Shown here piece after piece: positions 51,026 to 64,000 of a DNA stretch of 64,000 nt (its first letter is position 1; each line of letters starts with the position of its first letter). The stretch covers positions 2,232,001-2,296,000 of the forward strand of contig OZ287070.1 of assembly GCA_965645245.1 (NCBI GenBank). Direction: 5' to 3'. The notes beneath the pieces are model-generated. The model searched no databases. It saw only the letters and a list, made by a program, of their open reading frames with translations, and was not told the DNA's origin. The DNA comes from Massalongia carnosa. Its lineage: Eukaryota. The position numbers were made by a program, and so were the translations under genes.

Positions 51026-54000
51026 TCATTTTTTCTTCTTCTTTCCACCGCCCAAACCCAGCGACTCCGTAATGCTGCCTAAGCCAAGACCACCAAGTAA
51101 CTTGTCGATACCTAATCCGCCTAGCAGTCCATTGACCAAGCCACCCAAACCAAGCCCATTGAGCAACTTGCCGACCAAGCCCAGGACACCTGCCAGGAGC
51201 AAACCGACAGCAGCGATGATCTGGAACAGCGGCTCCGTGAGCAGGCCCCACAACGGGTTAAGGCCCTTCTTGGCGTGGGGCATGTCGGCAATGCGTTTCT
51301 TAGCATTGTCAATGGTCTTGACGACGGTGGTGGTGAGCTCCTTCAACGAGTCGGCGAGCGCATGCTCCTCGGGCGTGGCCTCGTGGCTAGCGGCGCGCGC
51401 TTTGGCGTTAGCGGCGATGCGTCCGTCCGGATCGAGACCGCGGATCGCGCCGTTGCACTCTTGCAGGATGCGTCCACCTTCTTCGATCATCGGCTTGACA
51501 TCTTGCACCAGTTGCTCTTCGTCCAGTTCGTCTTTGGGGGTGCGGTCGGCAGCTTCAATACGCTGGGAAAGGGTTAGTTAGACGGGTATGGTTTAAAGGA
51601 AGAAAGGAGTAAACTTACCTCTGTGATGTTTTTGCATACGGGTTCCATTCTGTCGAGAGTTTGCCTGAGAATCGAATTCATTTTCTTTGCCAACTCGTTG
51701 TCTTCCTCAGCCTTTTTCCGAGCGGCCAGTTCTTCCTCCGAAAGTTCTTCCTCTTCCTCTTCCTCTTCCTCTTCCTCTTCTTCTTCCTCCTCTGGCTCTT
51801 CCTCTTTAATGTTCTCAATTAAAGTACATTGTCCTACTCTGTTGCCGTCGTTGTCGATGACGTATCCATCATCATCAATTTCCTTACCAACCAGTGTGGC
51901 CAAGTCACCCTCGGTCAATTTTCCAATAACATTGCCATCTTCATCGCGCACTTCACCTTCTTTATTGACCTTTCGCCCCGACATGGGACTGACATGTCGT
52001 TCCTTTTCGGGGGGGGTGTATCGCTCTGCCTTGCCAATACTGTTGCCTTGCCTGTCAAGGATATCACCATCATCGTCCACCTTACGTCCGAGAAGTTTCA
52101 CCGGATCGCTGCCTTCTACTAGTTTGCCAACAACCTGTCCGGATGCGTCTTGAACGAAGCCATCTTTCACAACGACGAGACCTTCAAACCCGGAGAACGG
52201 GCCTTCAGATTTTCCTTGTTCGTCACCAGTGAGAGCTTGTGCTTGGCCAATAACCTTTCCATTATCACTCCATATTTGGCCTTTGCCATCGACTTTTCGC
52301 CCGGCCAATTTGAGAGGGTCTCCAGATACAACACGACCATACACTGTACCATGTTCGTCGACCACATTGCCAGCTTTGTTGACTACTTTGCCTTCTAGCG
52401 AGGACAGGTCCGCTTCCTCTTCTGTAGGTTCTTCGTACGGCTCGGCGTGGCCTTTAACGTTGCCAAACTTGTCAATTATGTCCCCATCTTCGTCCACAGT
52501 CCGGCCAACCAATTTCTTAGGATCACCTTCAGTGACTTGTCCAACAGTATTGCCATCTTCATCTTCCACCATACCACCCTTGACCACGACAAGACCTTGT
52601 AGGCCTGCAAATGGTCCTTCGGGTCGTTCCTCTCGTTCATTCGGAGGAATAAGTTCGACGCGACCAATGACTTTACCGTTGTCGTTCCACAACTGACCTT
52701 CTTCATCGACTTTCTTGCCTGCAAGCTCCTTAGCATTGCCTTCGACAAGTCGTGCAATGGGTACACCATCTGGGCCAATGACATTGCCTTGCTTATTAAC
52801 AGTTAAACCCTTGAGTATTGATAGGTCTGGCTTCTCTGGCTCAGGTTCCGCTTCAGGCTCGGGTTCATCATATCGTTCAGCATGGCCGACAACGTTGCCA
52901 CGCTTGTCAAGTACATCTCCATCCTCATCCACTGCCCTGCCGACCAACTTCTTAGGGTCACCTTCCGTGATTTTACCAACCTTATTCTCGTTGATATCCT
53001 CTACAAATCCATCCTTGACAACAATGAGGCCTTCAAGACCTGCAAACGGTGCTTCCTCTTCGTCATCATCTTGAGGTAGTGTTTGAGCCCTGCCGATTAC
53101 GTGGCCTTTTGAGTCCCAGAATTGACCTTCAGCATCGCATTGAGCACCGCTCTTGGCTATTTTCTTAGGATCCCCTTCTATCAGCTCACCCAGAGGTTTA
53201 CCATCAGCATTAACAATCTTGCCTGACTTATTGCACTTAAGCCCTTCAAGGATTGACAGAGGAGGTAGCTTAGGACCGGTATCCTCTTCCTCTTTCTCTT
53301 CCTCCTCAGGTTCTGGCGTGATAAGCTCAACTTTGCCAATGACCTTACCTTCAGAGTCTAGAACCTCGCCCTTTTCATTAAGTTTCTTTCCGATGAGCTC
53401 GGTAAGTTCGCCTTCCGAGACCTTTGCAATTGGATCGCCATCCTCATTCACCACTTCTCCCTTTTTGTTGACTTTTAGGCCGTCTAGGATGGAAAGGTCA
53501 GGACCGGTAGCTTTAGCTTCCTCGGGCTTTTCCTCAGGCTCTTCCTCGGGTTCTTCCTCGGGTTCTTGTGTGATAAGCTCAACCTTGCCAATAATATTAC
53601 CCTTGGAATCTAGAACCTCGCCTTTCTCGTTAAGTTTCTTTCCGATGAGCTCAGCGAGTTCGCCTTCCGACACCTTTGCGATTGGATCGCCATCCTCATT
53701 CACAACCTCGCCCTTTTTGTTGACTTTTAGCCCATCTAAGATAGAGAGGTCAGAATCACTAGCTTTGGCTTCCTCGGCAGCTCCTTCAGCATCTTCTACT
53801 GCATCTTCAGCACCTTCTTTAGCACCTTCAGCATCATCCGCAGCACCCTCGGCGTCTTCTGCAGCGCCTTCGGCATCTTCCGCAGCGTCCTCGGCATCTT
53901 CCGCAGCGTCTTCAGCTGCTTCAATTTCTTTAGGAACAACCTCCACTTTGCCAATTACATTGCCTTCTTTGTCCAATACTTCTCCTTGATCATTGATTTT

Positions 54001-56529
54001 CTTCCCGGTGACGTCCTTCAGTTCACCCTCTACTAGTCTTCCAATTGGCTCGCCGTCCTCGTCTAAAACTTCTCCTTTCTTGTTGACCTTCAGACCTTCC
54101 AAAGTGGAAAGATCAGGAGTTGCGGCCTTCTCGGCTTTCTCAGCAGCTTTAGCAGCGGCGTCTTCGACGGCTTGCTGCAGCTTTTCAACAATATCTGGAT
54201 TCAGAGCCTTCATGGCTTCATCAGCAGCTTCACCAGGTATAACTTCAACTTTCCCGATTACCTCCCCTTTATCATTGAGGATTTCTCCCTTCTCATTCGG
54301 TTTCTTGCCAACACATTGCTTCAGGTCCGAATCTTCAGTAAGTTTTCCAATAGGCTCGCCTTCTTCATCTAAAATATTGCCTTTCTTGTTGATTTTCTTC
54401 CCTTCGAGAATCGATACAGTAGGCTTGAGGGCATCGGTGTAAGGCTTTGTGTAGTATAATTTTTCTGCAGCTTCACCAGGAACAACTTCCGCCTTCCCTA
54501 TGACGTCTCCATCTTCATCAAGAACTTCACCCTTGTCATTGATGGTCTGGCCGACAAGGTCTTCCAGATCTCCTTCAACAATTTTGCCCAGAGGTTTGTC
54601 ATCTTCTCCTAGGATTTCACCACCTTCACCGACCTTGAGACCATCGAGAACTTCAACTTCCGGGAGAGCGTCCTCGTCGTCCTCTTCTTCCTCTGGTTTC
54701 TTTGTAGGAACAACTTCTGCTCTTCCGACAACGTCGCCGTCTTTGTCAACAATCTCGCCCTTGTCATTAAGTTTCAGACCAACCAGATCTTTTGGATCAC
54801 CTTCTATGACTTTGCCAATAGGCGTACCATCTGCTCCAAGAATATCACCGTCTTTGCCAACCTCGAGGCCGTCGAGTACACCGATGTCAGGAAGGTCTTC
54901 TTTCGTCTCATCCGCAACTTCTTTTGCTTTGTCTGGTAGTACGCTAGCACGGCCTATGACGTCTCCATCTTCATCCAGGATTTCTCCGTCATCACCAATG
55001 GTTTTACCTGCTAAATCTTCGGGGTCACCTTCGTCTAGCTGGCCTATTTGTTCGCCATCGGCACCCAGAATTTTTCCATCTTCACCCACTTCCAAGCCCT
55101 TTAGTACCGACAAATCAACCGGCGCTTGATCGGCGGCATCTTCGGCGGCGTCTTCAACTTCCTCAGCTACGTCTTCAACATTATCAGTATCAAGCGCCGC
55201 GTCTTTCGCGTCATCAACGGCGTCCTCGGCGTCATCCTTGGCACCATCAACCGTATCTTGTGCATCATCGGGAGCAGCGCCCTTTACACCATCCGCGGCA
55301 TCCTCGGCATCATCTTTTACACCGTCCACAGCATCCTCGGCGTCATCAGGAGCAGCATCTTCCACGCCTTCTTTTGTTTCCTCAGCTGCATCTTCGGCAT
55401 CATCGACTACATCTTCAACTCCTTCGTTAGCCTCATCTCCTGCTTCTTCAGCACCCTCTTTCGCGTCCTTAGTGGCACCATCCACATCACCTTCAGCGGC
55501 CTTTCCAGCAGTATCCTTGGCACCTGCCGCTTTCCCTGCGAGGCCACTCGCGGCACCATCCACTTTATCTTTGACACCTCCGGCTTTGCCCTTGGCACTC
55601 TTTGTCGTCTCGTCAGCTTTGTCCTTTGCACCCTTTGCCGTGTCATCGGCCTTATCTTTTGCACCCTTTGCCGTGCCATCGACTTTCTCTTTAGCATCAG
55701 CAGGAGCGGGCACATCGGTATCTCCGGCATCTTCAGCCGTGTTCTCAGCGGTGTCTTCCGCACCAGCCTCAGCATCCTCCTCCTCCTCTTCGTCGTCATC
55801 ATCATCATCATCATCAACAGGTTCAGGGGCGGCTTCATCTAAATCTGCCGTCGAGTTTGCCGAGCTTTCTTCTTCAGCCCCGGTTTCGTTGCCTGCTTGG
55901 CTGATTTTGCCTCCTGGCGTATCAGTTTCTTCGGTATCGGCTTCATTTGCAGGATCGTTGTCTTTTAGATCAATCTTGTCATCCGCGTCTTCGGTCTTGT
56001 CTTCTACTTTGTCCTTGGTCTCCTCCGCTTTGCCTTTGGCGTCCTCGCCCTTGTCTTTGACATCTTCTACCGGCTCCGAGGCTTTGGACGCTTTTGACGT
56101 TGCGTCCTTGGCCTTTGGAGTAGCTTCACCCGCGTCTTTCGGCCTTGGTGGTAGCTTCGGCGATGAGGTGTTCGACTTACTCGGAGCGGAGCTCTTAGCC
56201 TTATCGGTGGCACCTTTGGTTGCCGACTTGGGGGTGTCAGCTGCCGATTTCGCGGCATCTTTGGGTGAGTCGGCCGCGCTTTGCGATTGCCCGAGTTTTG
56301 AGGTGGTACTCGAGGCAGGATTCTTGCCTGACTTGGTAGGGGTTCTGGGAGCGTTGCTTGGGGTTTTCCCCGCGGCCGGTGAGGGCGCCATGCTTTTGGA
56401 TGTGCGTGCGGTTTGCGGGGAGGGAGTTTTGGAGCTCGTTTCGGGGCTCTGGGGGGGGGATGATCGATTCGGTGTGGGAGGGAAGGAATAGTATGCGTAG
56501 GAAGCAGAGGAGCGGGGATCGCTTGGCAT
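51026..56529 (-). CDS. Giant acidic LEA-like / DUF3659 repeat protein with hydrophobic Gly/Leu-rich C-terminus, 2 exons
   Basis: Many repeats of the type DLSxLxGLKVNKKGEV.DEDG.PIG.LVEG..K.L.GK.V.E.GEV.D..G.VIGK.E; LEA-like KDKA/EDAA tracts; intron ~51573-51618; ends GLGGGKKKKK*. The ATG at 56529 is the most likely start. Confidence 0.87.
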
Positions 56530-58078
56530 AAACAATGGTGAGTCTGAACAAAACGGGGGATCGGATTTTGTTTCGTTCACGGGGGGGGGGAGGCCACAAG
56601 TCTATGGGGGAGGTTGGGGGACGGGGCTATATCAAGTAATTATAATTCCCAGGGCCCGTTCATACTTGTTTACGGAGAGAGGAGCCAAAGCGACAGGAGA
56701 GTACGTCATTACCGCTACAAGTTGGATCCACAGGTACTCGGTAGTCTCCCCCCTTAGCCTGTCGAGTCGCGGCCGAAGCTCCCGCTGTGGCTGCAAAGCA
56801 AGAAATAAAAAGCAGGAAACCGTACATAGGCCGGGGAGGAGGTGCTGGCGATAACTACTGTGAAGCTAAGGGGAAGCTCTTTTTGCCGCAAAAGCGCTAA
56901 CATCCATTCGGCAGGATGAAGTTACGTCACTGACTCCGTGAAGAGGGAGTTTTGGATCCTCGGGTATGATCGCGGCCAATCAGCGTACCGAGACGGATGA
57001 ATTACGAGGAGAAAGCGCAGAAAAGTGGCTGGAGACCAGGGGGGGATGTGGGGGGTTCTGCATGTTACATTACTACAGCAATATTCTGTACTGTAGTACT
57101 TTGCGCGAATCGACGATTTAACCTTGTCGCCCATGACTTCATCCAACGTTCCCAGTCAACGTCGATCTAGACTCGATTGTGTGCTAGCGCCTCTCGGCTA
57201 CCATCCGACTCACGACATCCCTCACCTTTTGATTTGACCAGCGGAGCGCTTTTCTCTTTGTTTTCTCTTTGATGTACTGTGTAATTCTTTTCTCTTTGAC
57301 GTAATTGTTTTCCCTTTCCCTTTCCCTTTCCCTTGGCCACGTGGGGGTGATGGATTCGAGGGAAACAGCATTTCCAGAGCTCGAGCTTTGCTTTGTATGT
57401 CAACCCGTGTGTCTTCCCTCAGGACAACACGACGTTGCCTTCATGGTGATGCGGAACTACTCTGTACAGCCTAGGGATCCTAGGGATTATTGCGCTATTA
57501 GCCTGTCCCTCGGTTAGGAGGAGTTACGTCTAACATAATACAGAGTACACAGTACGGAGTACATGCTGTGATCTGGCGAACGGCGTAAAACCTGCTTTGG
57601 TCATTTGTGGAAATTAAAAAACGACTCGGACCGTTCGAAGGATGAAACTAGCTAACGTAACTACAAGGTACTCCGTACTCCGTACAGAGTAGTTACCTAC
57701 TTAGTCAAATGTCAAGCCACGCGCTTGTAAGTTTGTTAGCGAAGGCTACTGGAACCGAGACGAGGATCGTGGCTCTTCCACCCCACCTTCGCGTACACAT
57801 AAACCTAGCGTAGCAAATCCGCACGGCGAAGGGAGTATCACTGATGGATTGATAAGTCTGATGGGCAAAGTAACGGACGGTGACAACACCATCGTATTCG
57901 AGCCTTCAGTGAGTCAGCTCATTGAATTTACGTCGTGTAGAAGCTAAAGAATACCCACAGCGAACCGGAAGTTACCCCCTGATTGATAAAACTTCCCGGG
58001 CATAGCACACCAGCCTCTCGAACCCCTGCAAGAGCCACCCTTGGGTCTGGTCAGCTTGTGGTGACTTAATTGCTCGTA

Positions 58079-58789
58079 ATGAGGGGACCTGGCCCACATA
58101 CAAATGCAGCGAGGTGAATTCCATCCGATTTGGCTCGAATCCATCAAGAAACACGAGGTGATTACGTATGCAGATTGCAGGCTCTTGCTCTGGTTGAACA
58201 CGGCGTTCCCCCGGGGCAGGCCAGTCACACCACGAAAATATCCGTGAAGACCATCCAACGTCTACGGCGGCAAGCTCGAGCCCGCGGCTTCGACCCGGCG
58301 GTATCGTCCATTCTCAAGCTCGAATACGTCGAGGATGCCCCGCGTTCCGGCCGACCCCCCAAGCTAAACCCAGAGATCGAGGACACCATTGTCGCGTCGT
58401 TTGTGGGAGAAGGGGAGGAGAGAGAGAGGGTGACAAAGGCACAGGTGGCGGAAGCGACGGGCGTGTCGACCACGACCATTCGACGGGTATTGGCATCGCG
58501 AGGAGTGGTGTTTGAGCCGAGGCCAGGAAGCCACGCGGTGGACGACGGAATGTGGAAAATGCAAGAAAAGAAGGTTAAGACACCAAGGAGGCGAACAAAG
58601 GAGGTACAGGGTCAGAATGCGCCGGGTCAAGAAGTTTATACACAGCAGGGGGAGCCTGGGCCGGACGTGATCGATGAATTTGGCGGCAGATTGGACCCAT
58701 TACTCACGGCAGAAGCGAGACCGGAGATTTCGTTACAATGGCGGGTTTCTGGACTGGACAAAAATGGGAAATTAGAGAGAAAGGAATGA
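58079..58789 (+). CDS. Tc1/mariner transposase-derived bipartite HTH protein lacking the DDE domain, 2 exons
   Basis: ATG 58079 plus a 60-nt GT-AG intron (58114-58173) gives MRGPGPHTNAARLQALALVEHG; HTH1 (ISVKTIQRLRRQARARGFDP), EDAPRSGRPPKL linker, HTH2 (AQVAEATGVSTTTIRRVL). Confidence 0.68.
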
Positions 58790-59148: not shown

Positions 59149-60914
59149 ATGACAACAATCTCTGAACCCTTAGAAGGAAAGGGACAACAAATCGAGGGAA
59201 ACGATAATCGCGGAGCTGGGATTCCAACTCGCGATCCTGCGGATCATAGGGAATCCGACGCTGCAAGAACCCTTCAAAGAACCTATAGAGGTCACAGAGA
59301 TCGGCGAGCGCTCAAAGGTCTGAGCCTCGATCCTTCGACTCGATGGGCTGAAGTATGAAGTTGATGTTATATGAAAATAGCTTTCTTGTTTACCAGCTGT
59401 CTAAATAGGCCATAAAGGAAGCTCAGTACCGCTCGCTCACAACTCCTCGCCCCCGCTCCTCGAGCGCTCAGACCGAAGGCAAGCTCACCAGCCCATCTTC
59501 GGAAGCGCACCGAAACTGGCTTAGGGCGGCGAAGATCGCTCGGCGCGCGGTAGGAGAGGATGAAGAAATCAGCTCCTCCTCTTCGGACGAATCGCAGATC
59601 CCGGCGCAGAAGGAAGCCCGGCGGGAGAAGCGCCTGGAGGAGAAACGGGAAAGAATCAAGGGCGCGAAGATGATGGATTTACAATATTTTCTGGAGATGG
59701 TCGATCTCAAACATCGCTACGGAAGCAATCTGCGTAAGAGACCGATTTTGAAGGACGGGTAAGCCATGACTTACCACGTAATGACAGGCACGTACCACAA
59801 TGAATGGAAACGACACAGCACAAGAGAAAATTTCTTTTATTGGCTTGACTACGGCGAGGGAAAAGAGCTAAGCTTGCCAACGTGTCCAAGGGAGCGCCTG
59901 GATCGGGAACAGGTGCGGTATCTGAGCCGGGAAGAAAGACTGCATTACCTGGCAACCGTAGACAAGGAGGGAAAGCTTTGTTGGAAACGCAACGGGCAAC
60001 GCATCGATACCAGCATCAAGTGGAAAGATTCGATCCAGGGGATTGTGCCTGTGGAAGATACAACGCCCAGCTATGCTCCTGCTACGGCCAAGGCAACCCC
60101 ATCCGGAGACTCATCTAGCGCAGAGAGCAGCGATTCGGGAGACTCGAGCGTGGACGAGAGGAAAAAACGCTACGTGAACGAAGATTTGAAGGGTGCCAAG
60201 GGAACCAAGAAGGTGCTTCGCGTGTCCCCAGCGACAATATTCAATCAGTTGCTCCGAACTTCCGTGAGGAAGAACACATGGATATTCGTAAGTTTCTTCG
60301 GTTGTTTCAATCCATGATCTTTCCGGTCAGGGGATAAGATCCGAGACGTCAAGCGTTCATCGGGGAATCCGCTAAAACGAGGGGAATAGGTCGCCGATAC
60401 GAATTTCAACCTCTACATTGGAATCAAGCAATCGGGAGCATTTCAGCATTCCTCGTTCCTGCACGGGTCTCGCATCTCGGCCGCAGGACTCATCAAGATA
60501 AAAAATGGTCAGGTCCGAAGTTTGTCTCCCCTCAGGTATCGCCTCCTCTACCCTTTTGATTATATCGATTTTTCCACTTTCTCATTTCCACCAACCCCCT
60601 TTCCAGCCACAAAAACTAACTCACTAGTCCTCCAACCGCGTAGCGGGCACTACCGGCCCCCCTCATCTAACTTCCGCGCCTTCATCCGCGCCCTCCAGGC
60701 TCGCGGTGTCGATATGTCCGCCATGAGCGTGTCGAAGAGCTACGCCGTCCTGTTGGGGTTGGAGGGTTACACGAAAACGAGACGGAAGATTGAGGGGGTG
60801 GGAAGGGTTTTCCGGAAGAAGGACGGAGGAGAGGGGAAGGAAAAGGATGGGAGCTGGAAGGGAAAGGAAAGGAAAGGAAATGGGGAGGGAGAGAAGGTGC
60901 TGGTAATTAGATGA
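59149..60914 (+). CDS. IQ calmodulin-binding motif protein (IQM-like family), multi-exon
   Basis: IQ-like AARTLQRTYRGHRDRRAL; YFLEMVDLKHRYGSNL; FFYWLDYGEGK; FQHSSFLHGSRISAAGLI; SGHYRP. Confidence 0.88.
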
Positions 60915-61588: not shown

Positions 61589-62014
61589 ATGCCTTCGTGT
61601 TGCGACTCTCCGCCGGAGCACAAACCATCTTTGAGCCATTCTAAACGTGGTGCCCTTGCGTCGTTTTCTTCATTGTCGCCCATCGCGTCGGCCATCCTTA
61701 CCAGTTCTTGTTGCTGGCTACCAGTGAGTGTTCTCATACCGTCTAGGGTGTAAGATGAATAACGCTTGTTCCTTTAGGTCTTGCTTGACTTTGCATCCAT
61801 AGGGTCTGCATCCGCAACAGCGCTCCATCGCCTTCGACCACTTTTCTTGCTGGTCACGGTTCTGGCCCTCACTGAGAGTGTTCGTCGGCAGGGACTCGGC
61901 AGCCGTAACCTGCTTCGGATCTTCATATCCTGTCTCATAGTAGCTTTACCCCAACTTTCATCCTTCATCGAGCGGTTCCGGACGTCTGAAGCGTCGCATG
62001 GGAGCTGCCATTGA
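61589..62014 (+). CDS. MerT-like small heavy-metal-binding membrane protein (~123 aa), 2 exons
   Basis: Exon 61589-61723 (MPSCCD...IASAILTSSCCWLP), 54-nt GTGAGT...TAG intron (61724-61777), exon 61778-62014 (VLLDFASIGSASATALHRLRPLFLLVTVLAL...SHGSCH*). Confidence 0.7.
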
Positions 62015-62068
62015 ACCCCTCGAGTCTTTCTATAAGGTCTCATAGCGTTTCAGAACCGAGCAGGCGAT

Positions 62069-62779
62069 ATGGCGAGCGGTTCCCTCAGGCCAGGTTTTTG
62101 TCCTATGGCTCGGGCATGGCCTGTATCACTAGGGGCTATTCTTTTCACCAACACGTTAAATCCAGTATCGCTCCAGAAAAGATATTCCAAAGTATTCGTT
62201 CGTACGGCTGCTGGAGATTCAAATCGTACTCTTAAAGGATGCAGCGCGAACGCTTCAGTAACAAAATCTGCCACTACCCTTAGCTTCTGGGACTCGCCAT
62301 ACGTGTGGAAGAGGGCTGGGATTAACACGCTACGATGCCTTGCTGGTTGTTCGCTCGGCGACTTTTCAGCTATGTGGTTTCTACAAGTCAACTATCCGGA
62401 AATGGGTATGAGCATGATCATGGCTACCTCCAGTTAGGATTTCGTTTCAACCATTTTCATCCTCTGTCTCTAACGTTTGCTTGTAGTTGCAGCGGGCCTG
62501 GCCACTTCTATGTCGCTCGAGACCGTCCTCCTCCGACTAGGGCGTGATCGGCTGAGCTGGGAAGCAGCAGCAAAGACAGCTACTGGCATGAGCTTAGCAT
62601 CTATGTTGGTTATGGAGCTAGTTCAAAATACAGTCGACTACCAGTTGACAGGCGGAGTGGTTGCGCTTGACGACGCTCAATTCTGGACAGCAGCAGCAAT
62701 TTCCATGCTCGCTGGTTTTCTTGCACCTCTCCCGTACAACTACATTCGATTGCGGAAGCATGGAAAGGGTTGCCATTAG
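62069..62779 (+). CDS. DUF4396 membrane protein, 2 exons
   Basis: NTLRCLAGCSLGDF; intron 62433-62486; GMSLASMLVMELVQNTVD; AGFLAPLPYNYIRLRKHGKGCH*. Start could be 62069 or a slightly downstream ATG. Confidence 0.85.
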
Positions 62780-63485
62780 AGCGGAGGCATACGAAAATTG
62801 GACATTTGGGACGAAAGGAGATGCGATGATGGCTGTCGCTACTCGGTTGCATAGCACTCTACTACTGTATCCTGCAATATTTCAATCCTGTTCCCCCCAA
62901 TATACACGAAATACTCATTGCTATAGCAAATCCACCGATAGCTCCAACCGTCCCCCCCCCTGAATAGTACTTACTATATAAGAGCCATGAGGCCATTATC
63001 TAGTTATCGTATACCCTTCACACCTATTTGTGACGACATGACCGCTATGCTTCGGCCCACCTCTGGTTTGTACAAGGCGTGAGGGGGTGAGAAGAGCCAG
63101 GCGGCGTCCAGACCACCGTGCCTGCAATGCTTAAGGGCGTTCAAGGGGTAGCGGCATCGCACTTTAGCTCCTGATAGCGCTTGAGTGATTTGTGCGTTTT
63201 GTGGAGCACCCGGGCATTTTAGTGGCCACGCAGAAAGCGCTCGTCAAGCCACAGGGACAGGGTCATACCATACGACTGGCCATTTTGGACACCTTGTGGG
63301 GTACACGGTTATGGCGAATAGCTGCCCTTGACGACCTATGGACAGGGAGGAGACATACCCGGACTCGGTGGGCAGAATGAATACCCCTCTATCCCTTCAA
63401 TATGGAGGAAAGCATTACTATTATTCCTTCAGTCTATGTATCAATGGTGGCCTGGAATAATTACATGCTGGCTAGGTACTCAAGA

Positions 63486-64000
63486 CTAGCGTGAGACGGT
63501 AGTGGTGCACCTGAACCCCACTCCAGGCAACTTGCTTCGCAAAAGGAGACTGCTGCAAACTACGCTCACACTGCTTAACGCCATGGCTAAGCTAGCCCAG
63601 ATAGGATCAAGTCGAATATGGCTGCCTTTGCTCACCACCGGGTACAATACGCCAGCAGCAATGGGGAGAGCGATGAGGTTGTAAACAAGAGCCCATCCAA
63701 AGTTGAACAAAACCCTCCTGAAGACGGCTTGGCTTAAATCAATGAGCACCAAAACCGATGTCAGGCACGAAGACATAAGCACAAACTCAGCAGACGATAT
63801 GGCAACGTCCGAGCCCGAACCTACCGCAATACCGACATCAGCCATGGTCAATGCCGCTGCGTCGTTGATGCCATCACCTATCATGGCGACCGTCGACCTA
63901 TGCTGAGGGCCGCGGCGACCTCGGCCTACCGAAGTCTTCTGAAGATATTGTATCTTCTCCGCCTTTTCATCAGGAAGAACTCCCGCAATCACCCTTTCCT
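63486..64000 (-). CDS. Heavy-metal P1B-1 (Cu+) ATPase, C-terminal part (gene runs off the window)
   Basis: AGVLPDEKAEKI; AMIGDGINDAAALTMADVGIAVGSGSDVAISSA hinge; YN motif (VYNLIALPIAAG) and MxxSS motif (AMALSSVSVV). Confidence 0.93.
   Translation of the reverse strand, partial: ERVIAGVLPDEKAEKIQYLQKTSVGRGRRGPQHRSTVAMIGDGINDAAALTMADVGIAVGSGSDVAISSAEFVLMSSCLTSVLVLIDLSQAVFRRVLFNFGWALVYNLIALPIAAGVLYPVVSKGSHIRLDPIWASLAMALSSVSVVCSSLLLRSKLPGVGFRCTTTVSR

Follow-up and report, generated by a model that had tools for sequence, protein, structure and literature searches.

We analysed a 64,000-nt window of the Massalongia carnosa genome (assembly GCA_965645245.1, contig OZ287070.1, positions 2,232,001 to 2,296,000 of the forward strand) and identified, between window positions 61589 and 64000, three neighbouring genes: a gene for a small membrane protein, here referred to as G1, a gene for a DUF4396 membrane protein on the same (+) strand, and the 3′ end of a convergent P1B-1 ATPase gene on the (-) strand. 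The trio is probably a conserved, ancient fungal cluster for handling soft metals, with copper(I) as the most likely one. The arrangement recurs in other fungi, which puts it far beyond chance. The first-pass annotation of this DNA, made from its letters and reading frames, had described a small membrane protein with two CC pairs, a DUF4396 protein with CxxxC and Met-rich helices, a convergent ATPase with YN and MxxSS motifs, and a His/Cys tail on both small proteins, and each of these was borne out. The spliced G1 product, as computed, has 123 amino acids (aa), with CC at residues 4-5 and 41-42 (the latter in CCWLP) and SCH at the C-terminus, while the 218-aa DUF4396 product has the CxxxC in helix 1, the Met-rich helices and a GCH C-terminus, and the DUF4396 model PF14342 matched both of its exons.

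P1B-1 pumps are recognised by a transmembrane signature composed of CPC, N-x6-YN-x4-P and M-x2-SS-x5-S/N. Both N-x6-YN-x4-P and M-x2-SS were read in the translation of the window ATPase, and the best NCBIfam model for the 170-aa fragment was TIGR01511 (copper P-type ATPase, E 5.4e-45), with a score under the full-length cut-off, as expected of a fragment. The full-length product (P0157, from the protein database; 1232 aa, 100% identical over the fragment) contains the CPC motif and the Pfam domains E1-E2_ATPase and Hydrolase together with three HMA stretches. By models, domains and motifs, the window ATPase is thus classed as a P1B-1 copper(I) pump. Its N-terminus has five CxxC motifs, at residues 28, 136, 212, 299 and 381. 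Proteins with five such motifs, among them those annotated as 'copper resistance-associated P-type ATPase' and a Peltula protein, align to P0157 over the full length at 49-60%, whereas for the four-motif class ('related to CCC2', 'copper-transporting ATPase 3') the alignment begins only at about residue 265-289. A review describes CrpA of A. nidulans as having three GMxCxxC HMA domains preceded by two Cys motifs (PMC6981102). Given this description, the five-motif N-terminus and the full-length alignment, the window pump appears to be CrpA-like. P0157 shares with CrpA of Aspergillus and Crp1 of Candida albicans the two N-terminal Cys motifs plus three HMA domains, the CPC and the P1B-1 motifs, but the review gives CxxxC for CrpA where P0157 has CxxC (PMC6981102).

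DUF4396 and a pump of this kind are neighbours in several annotated fungal genomes. They have consecutive locus tags in Peltula sp. (001816 and 001817), and in Aspergillus parasiticus, A. novoparasiticus, A. arachidicola and A. transmontanensis (section Flavi) their accessions are two apart on the same contig, with a 217-aa paralogue as the pump-linked DUF4396 protein and a Crp-type pump as its neighbour. An earlier study lists species with two Crp-type pumps, A. flavus, A. parasiticus and A. arachidicola being three of them (PMC6177249). G1 and DUF4396 carry consecutive tags in Malbranchea (994 and 995), and six Onygenales gene models fuse G1 with DUF4396.

The same neighbourhoods were seen in metagenome contigs, of which 425 stretches encode a relative; 80 of the 425 were kept, and 46 fungal-like loci fell into 35 clusters. 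A copper ATPase was present in the locus in 9 of the 35 clusters, and in 4 of the 9 clusters whose flanks measure 5 kb or more on each side. G1 adjoins DUF4396 in 4 of the 35. All three genes were found in locus L006, in the order pump, DUF4396, G1, and in locus L024, in the order G1, DUF4396, multicopper oxidase (L024:10356-11243), pump. L024 also contains an open reading frame (ORF; L024:271-1245) with a MerB (alkylmercury lyase) domain (PF03243, E 7.3e-14) about 6 kb upstream of the G1-DUF4396 pair. The window, L013 and L014 have the pump and DUF4396 in convergent orientation, L027 and L024 have them in tandem, and in the L031 group and L006 they are divergent. Among the linked metagenome pumps, the N-terminus is of the five-motif kind in four and has four motifs in three. 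Pump-linked DUF4396 copies are scattered over the DUF4396 tree, which is a quick, unrooted one with mostly weak branches.

On these gene orders, the linkage of the three genes is not a matter of chance. The first-pass annotation had made its proposal depend in part on linkage in other fungi, and such linkage was found in Peltula, section Flavi, Onygenales and metagenome clusters, although it is not universal. Several observations weigh against a functional unit. The pump is missing in 5 of the 9 clusters with long flanks; DUF4396 and the ATPase are 143 locus tags apart in Penicillium argentinense; and G1 and DUF4396 are on different contigs in Pseudogymnoascus verrucosus and Aspergillus caelatus. 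Moreover, L031, L039, L042 and L046 are close relatives and count as one case, so the independent ATPase-linked cases are fewer than nine. Inherited synteny without shared function, in which the functions of DUF4396 and G1 would involve neither the pump nor metals, could account for a linkage that is absent from many genomes, including those of P. argentinense, P. verrucosus and A. caelatus. We consider it unlikely, as the adjacency survives changes of order and strand and is spread over separate parts of the DUF4396 tree, while the bacterial DUF4396 proteins are fused to HMA and G1 is kin to MerT. If a genome of tens of Mb is assumed to carry a handful of P1B genes, chance would place one within 8 kb in far less than 1% of cases.

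Further features of these neighbourhoods were recorded. The DUF4396 gene of L035 is near-identical to that of the pump-linked L031 group, yet no pump lies within 5.7-7.8 kb of it, and it may be a second copy or the result of a rearrangement. In Cadophora malorum, a protein named laccase (IFR04_003286) adjoins a copper ATPase (IFR04_003287), again a copper enzyme near this type of pump. An Abhydrolase_3 esterase is located near G1/DUF4396 in two unrelated clusters (L006:4919-6019, L004:5206-6249, L024:2037-3152).

The G1 family was examined with an exhaustive phmmer search of 1.84 billion representative proteins, using exon 2 as query, which found 26 relatives at E<=1e-3, 9 of them at E<=1e-10. 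Most of the matches listed extend to the final residue of the relative and have the same terminal CH. A word-indexed search with the same exon for proteins of similar length returned one candidate and none that scored. The named members belong to Lipomyces, Pseudogymnoascus, Malbranchea, Aspergillus and Paracoccidioides. In the family alignment, the N-terminus carries CC or CxxC, helix 1 has SSCCWLP-x-LLD, there is a GSAS turn, helix 2 has an RP motif, the loop joining helices 2 and 3 is basic, and CH closes the protein. CCWLP is present in the window G1 and in every aligned full-length member (as CCWVP in one). Judged by these members, G1 is a real and conserved fungal family.

The description of G1 as MerT-like, given in the first pass, held at the level of profiles and not at that of family models. 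MerT reference sequences were gathered from bacterial genomes (a match in 52 of 201), and hhalign aligned G1 to MerT with a probability of 96.6% and an E of 5.4e-10, the 57 aligned columns stretching from the first helix to the second, whereas the negative controls gave 0.4% (reversed MerT) and 0.3% (DUF4396). In the reverse direction, the fungal G1 profile matched 14 of the 201 bacterial genomes at E<=0.01, and 13 of these 14 places are MerT genes. A language-model atlas also pointed G1 to MerT clusters (score 0.86), which we take as a lead only. G1 resembles MerT/MerTP (PF02411) in being a small protein with three predicted helices, with CC-x-x-P in helix 1, a Gly/Ser-rich turn and an RP motif opening helix 2.

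Against a closer assignment, PF02411 scores 11.7-18.9 bits in six of eight full-length G1 members against a gathering score of 32.9, the window G1 exons give no PF02411 match, and G1 members are far under the cut-offs of the NCBIfam MerT models. The collected MerT sequences carry, besides CC-x-x-P, DCxCE-like pairs in the loop between helices 2 and 3; this second Cys pair is absent from G1, where the loop reads RRxGxxxR, and G1 has the N-terminal CC or CxxC and the C-terminal Cys-His instead. Unlike MerT, G1 is eukaryotic, has an intron and lies beside DUF4396 and a copper pump; a scan of 45 window ORFs showed no merR, merP or merA context and neither MerA nor MerB. No close bacterial relative of G1 was found in these searches, only remote MerT. 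Since the match is at profile level and comes without the loop Cys pair and without mer context, G1 is filed here as a putative new eukaryotic branch of the MerT superfamily and not as MerT. The predicted structure of G1 (predicted local distance difference test, pLDDT, 61; predicted template modelling score 0.27) was too poor for a fold search, and the G1 profile gave 0 matches at E<=10 among PDB sequences. As for MerT itself, most matches in the sampled bacterial phylum are open frames of about 200-240 aa, double the MerT length, which suggests fusions such as MerT-MerP.

For DUF4396, the PF14342 scores were 42 bits (E 1.5e-10) on exon 1 and 99.2 bits (E 3.4e-28) on exon 2, at a cut-off of 27. 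The homologue search gave 183 matches, and all named ones among the best 120 of the 183 are Ascomycota, with 73-76% identity between exon 2 and its best fungal homologues. Saccharomyces is absent from the named matches of both DUF4396 and G1. Most fungal DUF4396 proteins stand alone, each with its own N-terminal extension. A scan of prokaryote genomes confirmed 374 DUF4396 loci, the best 80 of which are mostly from Bacteroidota and 39-53% identical to a fungal protein. Bacterial and fungal proteins share, as invariant features, C-x3-C and GD in helix 1, a Glu in helix 2, MS..SM..ME in helix 3, PLPYNY and a Cys-His at the C-terminus. Along helices 1-3, the conserved residues (Cys, Asp, Glu, Met and Ser) are spaced about one helical turn apart, and this spacing is what a putative metal path would need.

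The bacterial proteins provide a link to HMA domains. In bacterial-like metagenome loci, an N-terminal HMA domain was found by Pfam in the DUF4396 ORF in 11 of 16 cases, and in bacterial genomes an N-terminal extension with CxxC is part of the same ORF in 72 of 80 loci (31 with strict G[ML]xCxxC); the terminal CH is present in 80 of 80. These HMA-DUF4396 proteins, uncharacterised and found in Bacteroidota and others, share with the fungal ones a four-helix core with the invariant residues (39-48% identity over aligned rows). Where they have the HMA, however, the fungal proteins have a basic extension of about 54-81 aa with few or no acidic residues. The fungal genes have an intron and often adjoin a P1B ATPase, while the bacterial ones often follow an AraC-type regulator, as in 7 of the 16 bacterial-like metagenome loci. 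Such an AraC-family regulator directly precedes DUF4396 in the Bacteroidota-like L047, L049, L050, L051, L053, L055 and L058, all HMA-fused except L053, and the gene for a Glu/Gln tRNA synthetase is next to it in several of these, a sign that the chromosomal site is conserved. In L080:2016-3456, an HMA-less DUF4396 gene is followed by an extracytoplasmic function sigma factor and a 'Heavy-metal resistance' (PF13801) protein.

The AlphaFold model of DUF4396 has a helical core with pLDDT above 90, and Foldseek found no match to it in the PDB at E<=0.001. The best Z in a wide VIA-align search was 6.7, to a TRIC channel, which is inside the noise range of helical bundles, and no fold was assigned. 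Complex prediction for Malbranchea DUF4396 (residues 70-217) and the neighbouring G1 gave no verdict either way (score 0.00 in both runs, made on single sequences without alignments).

We infer the metal, the direction of transport, the location of the proteins, their co-transcription and any physical contact between them, in the following scheme. The CrpA-type P1B-1 ATPase, with its two Cys motifs and three HMA domains, would export Cu(I) from the cytosol. Two membrane proteins, DUF4396 with four helices and G1 with three, would both be small metal carriers lined by thiol, thioether and carboxylate groups, G1 with one Cys pair inside helix 1, another at the N-terminus and the C-terminal Cys-His. 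The two may take Cu(I) or another soft metal from, or give it to, Cys-pair domains of the HMA type. In Bacteroidota the HMA is fused to DUF4396; in fungi it may be supplied in trans, by the N-terminus of the neighbouring pump or by a chaperone. DUF4396 may also act in an organelle membrane, as its N-terminus would suggest.

In 26 fungal DUF4396 proteins, the median count over the first 40 aa is 6.5 for basic residues and 0 for acidic ones, with no acidic residue at all in 18, and this N-terminus looks like a mitochondrial presequence. It would place DUF4396 apart from a pump of the plasma membrane or Golgi, which argues against a direct hand-over; should it be a presequence, the cluster would couple cytosolic export with the protection of an organelle. 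The bacterial neighbourhoods are a further point against the relay, as no P1B ATPase was found within 6 kb of DUF4396 in any of the 80 bacterial genome loci. On this absence, the trio as such is fungal. We know of no identified exporter of the mitochondrial matrix copper pool. It is conceivable, if rather improbable, that the dicistronic G1-DUF4396 pair and the CrpA-type pump form an ancient eukaryotic relay in which a presequence-bearing DUF4396 moves Cu(I) across the mitochondrial inner membrane.

The shared theme of the cluster may also be mercury and not copper, a point raised against copper by the MerB-domain ORF in L024. In that case G1 and DUF4396 would be a mercury or organomercury pair, with MerT-like import and a DUF4396 carrier, found near a copper pump only through shared regulation by thiophilic metals. 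HMA domains serve mercury systems too, and the kinship of G1 to MerT would fit. We regard this as somewhat unlikely: in L024 a multicopper oxidase separates DUF4396 from the pump, the gene that recurs nearby encodes a Cu-type pump with P1B-1 motifs, neither MerA nor MerB was seen in the scanned window ORFs, and G1 is without the second Cys pair. Handling of copper(I) is thus the reading we prefer.

The coordinates of the trio are given in the table below. The reading frame of G1 closes when its intron is read through, and G1 homologues run from CCWLP directly into the exon 2 sequence. Intron-free homologues agree with both splice junctions, the spliced DUF4396 product aligning to its homologues gap-free. 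The position of the G1 intron is common to metagenome loci and the same in database entries that retain the intron, and the DUF4396 exon boundary, at query residues 121/122, is also found in many metagenome loci. The ATPase frame (63486-63998 on the minus strand) leaves the window, and the remaining bases to 64000 are also its own.

Table. Positions of the three genes and their parts in the 64,000-nt window
Feature	Position	Strand	Description
G1 exon 1	61589..61723	+	45 aa; N-terminal CC pair and CCWLP of helix 1; start ATG at 61589
G1 intron	61724..61777	+	54 nt, GTGAGT...TAG; in-frame stops inside
G1 exon 2	61778..62014	+	78 aa; rest of helix 1, helices 2 and 3, SCH tail; stop 62012-62014
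G1-DUF4396 spacer	62015..62068	+	54 nt between G1 stop and DUF4396 start; ATG-free
DUF4396 exon 1	62069..62432	+	Basic N-terminal extension without acidic residues, then helix 1 (RCLxGC, GDF)
DUF4396 intron	62433..62486	+	54 nt, GTTAGG...TAG, phase 1
DUF4396 exon 2	62487..62779	+	Helices 2-4, GCH tail; stop 62777-62779
P1B-1 copper ATPase, 3′ end	63486..64000	-	Last 170 aa; stop 63486-63488; gene extends past the window

The two small genes are very close to each other. In every case with G1 ahead of DUF4396, the two are only a few tens of bases apart: from the G1 stop to the first in-frame ATG of DUF4396 there are 54 nt in the window, 27 in L024, 37 in L008/L011 and 50 in L016/L017, spacers that would be too short for a terminator and a promoter and that are conserved across lineages, as is looked for in a dicistron. 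Between the G1 start and the DUF4396 start, after splicing, four lineages have 5 ATG triplets together, against 13.65 expected from codon shuffles (P 0.003) and 20.06 from mononucleotide shuffles (P below 0.0002). The short spacers and the AUG-depleted upstream mRNA suggest one message, and G1 and DUF4396 are probably translated from a dicistronic mRNA through leaky scanning or re-initiation. Two points weigh against this: the depletion is not significant in any single lineage (codon shuffle, P 0.07-0.31), and the G1 start codon has an A at -3, a strong context that disfavours leaky scanning. The operon-like metal unit proposed in the first pass is nevertheless in keeping with the recurrent linkage, the spacers of 27-54 nt and the AUG depletion. 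The glpks3-glnrps7 pair of Glarea lozoyensis has reportedly been described as a fungal operon, and leaky scanning is said to operate at polycistronic loci of green algae. G1-DUF4396 shares with these dicistrons two same-strand ORFs a few tens of bases apart and the upstream AUG depletion; it would span classes of Ascomycota and not a single species. Bicistrons with short spacers and re-initiation function in yeasts and A. nidulans, according to one report (PMC10352335).

G1 and DUF4396 could instead be one gene, spliced into a seven-helix fusion protein, as in the fused models of Blastomyces silverae, B. percursus, Helicocarpus, Emmonsia crescens, Paracoccidioides brasiliensis and Trichophyton soudanense. 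These models, however, join the two parts at points that differ between species, and the G1 stop and the terminal CH preceding it are kept in stand-alone members, including the Ajellomycetaceae-like P0127, which makes two proteins more likely than one. Malbranchea is annotated with two genes, and the stand-alone DUF4396 proteins with their own N-terminal extensions argue in the same direction. A single fusion gene is thus very unlikely, and a dicistronic message with two products is the reading that we keep.

The first-pass annotation had further proposed a bacterial ancestry of the unit, followed by the gain of introns, and this part was weakened. Upstream genes in the window are housekeeping ones (Pex13, Atg6, SF3b1, a PQ-loop protein, a TBC domain protein, GH32, FAN1 and Tdp1), no Starship, other island feature or boundary was seen within the 64 kb, and both small families are widespread in Ascomycota with intron positions common across lineages. 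With such neighbours, no boundary in the window and shared intron positions, a recent bacterial or mobile origin is not supported. For a recently acquired bacterial or mobile (Starship-type) metal island one could cite the identity of DUF4396 to Bacteroidota proteins (about 45-53%) and a fragment with transposase-like helix-turn-helix (HTH) domains 3 kb upstream. Such an island is nonetheless extremely unlikely: besides the housekeeping neighbours, the spread of both families and their common introns, the section Flavi DUF4396 paralogues are sisters in the tree, the 80 bacterial DUF4396 loci are without the pump, and G1 has only remote MerT as bacterial kin. This judgement bears on a recent origin; for a transfer of DUF4396 in the distant past the quick tree, which is unrooted, is no guide.

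The HTH fragment is an ORF at 58118-58786 (+), with HTH_29, HTH_23 and HTH_32 and no catalytic part, and is probably what remains of a DNA transposon; it lies some 3 kb upstream of G1. A purine-rich low-complexity tract with GGAAAGG-like repeats lies at 60800-60900, about 700 nt upstream of G1. Further upstream, a 1675-aa open frame at 51577-56601 (-) contains 14 DUF3659 repeats and is very rich in Asp, Glu and Lys. The window also includes 200 N bases, presumably an assembly gap.

The first-pass annotation knew of no description of such a unit in fungi. Likewise, the searched literature (supplementary tables outside the search) held no description of a fungal DUF4396 or MerT-like fungal protein; the Paracoccidioides locus tags had no match there, and DUF4396 appeared only as a flank of a bacterial metal island. 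Companion genes beside crpA are not mentioned in the accessible parts of the copper papers PMC6177249, PMC7705104 and PMC6981102. Metal-resistance clusters and relays based on MerT or HMA are of known kinds, and what would be new here are the two uncharacterised families and their likely dicistron.

The cluster offers a concrete hypothesis for two uncharacterised membrane families, one a Pfam DUF and the other an unnamed eukaryotic relative of MerT. It also presents a Rosetta-stone link: HMA is fused to DUF4396 in bacteria and an HMA-rich pump adjoins DUF4396 in fungi. The G1-DUF4396 pair is also a candidate for a naturally conserved dicistron in Ascomycota, where protein-coding operons are rare. 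Moulds, among them pathogens and the targets of copper fungicides, defend themselves against copper chiefly by CrpA-type export. Exporters of the CrpA/Crp1 type are also marked by copper-induced expression under AceA and by sensitivity to copper when deleted. If the proposed role is true, the copper homeostasis network of fungi would gain two components and the MerT-type carriers would gain a eukaryotic branch.

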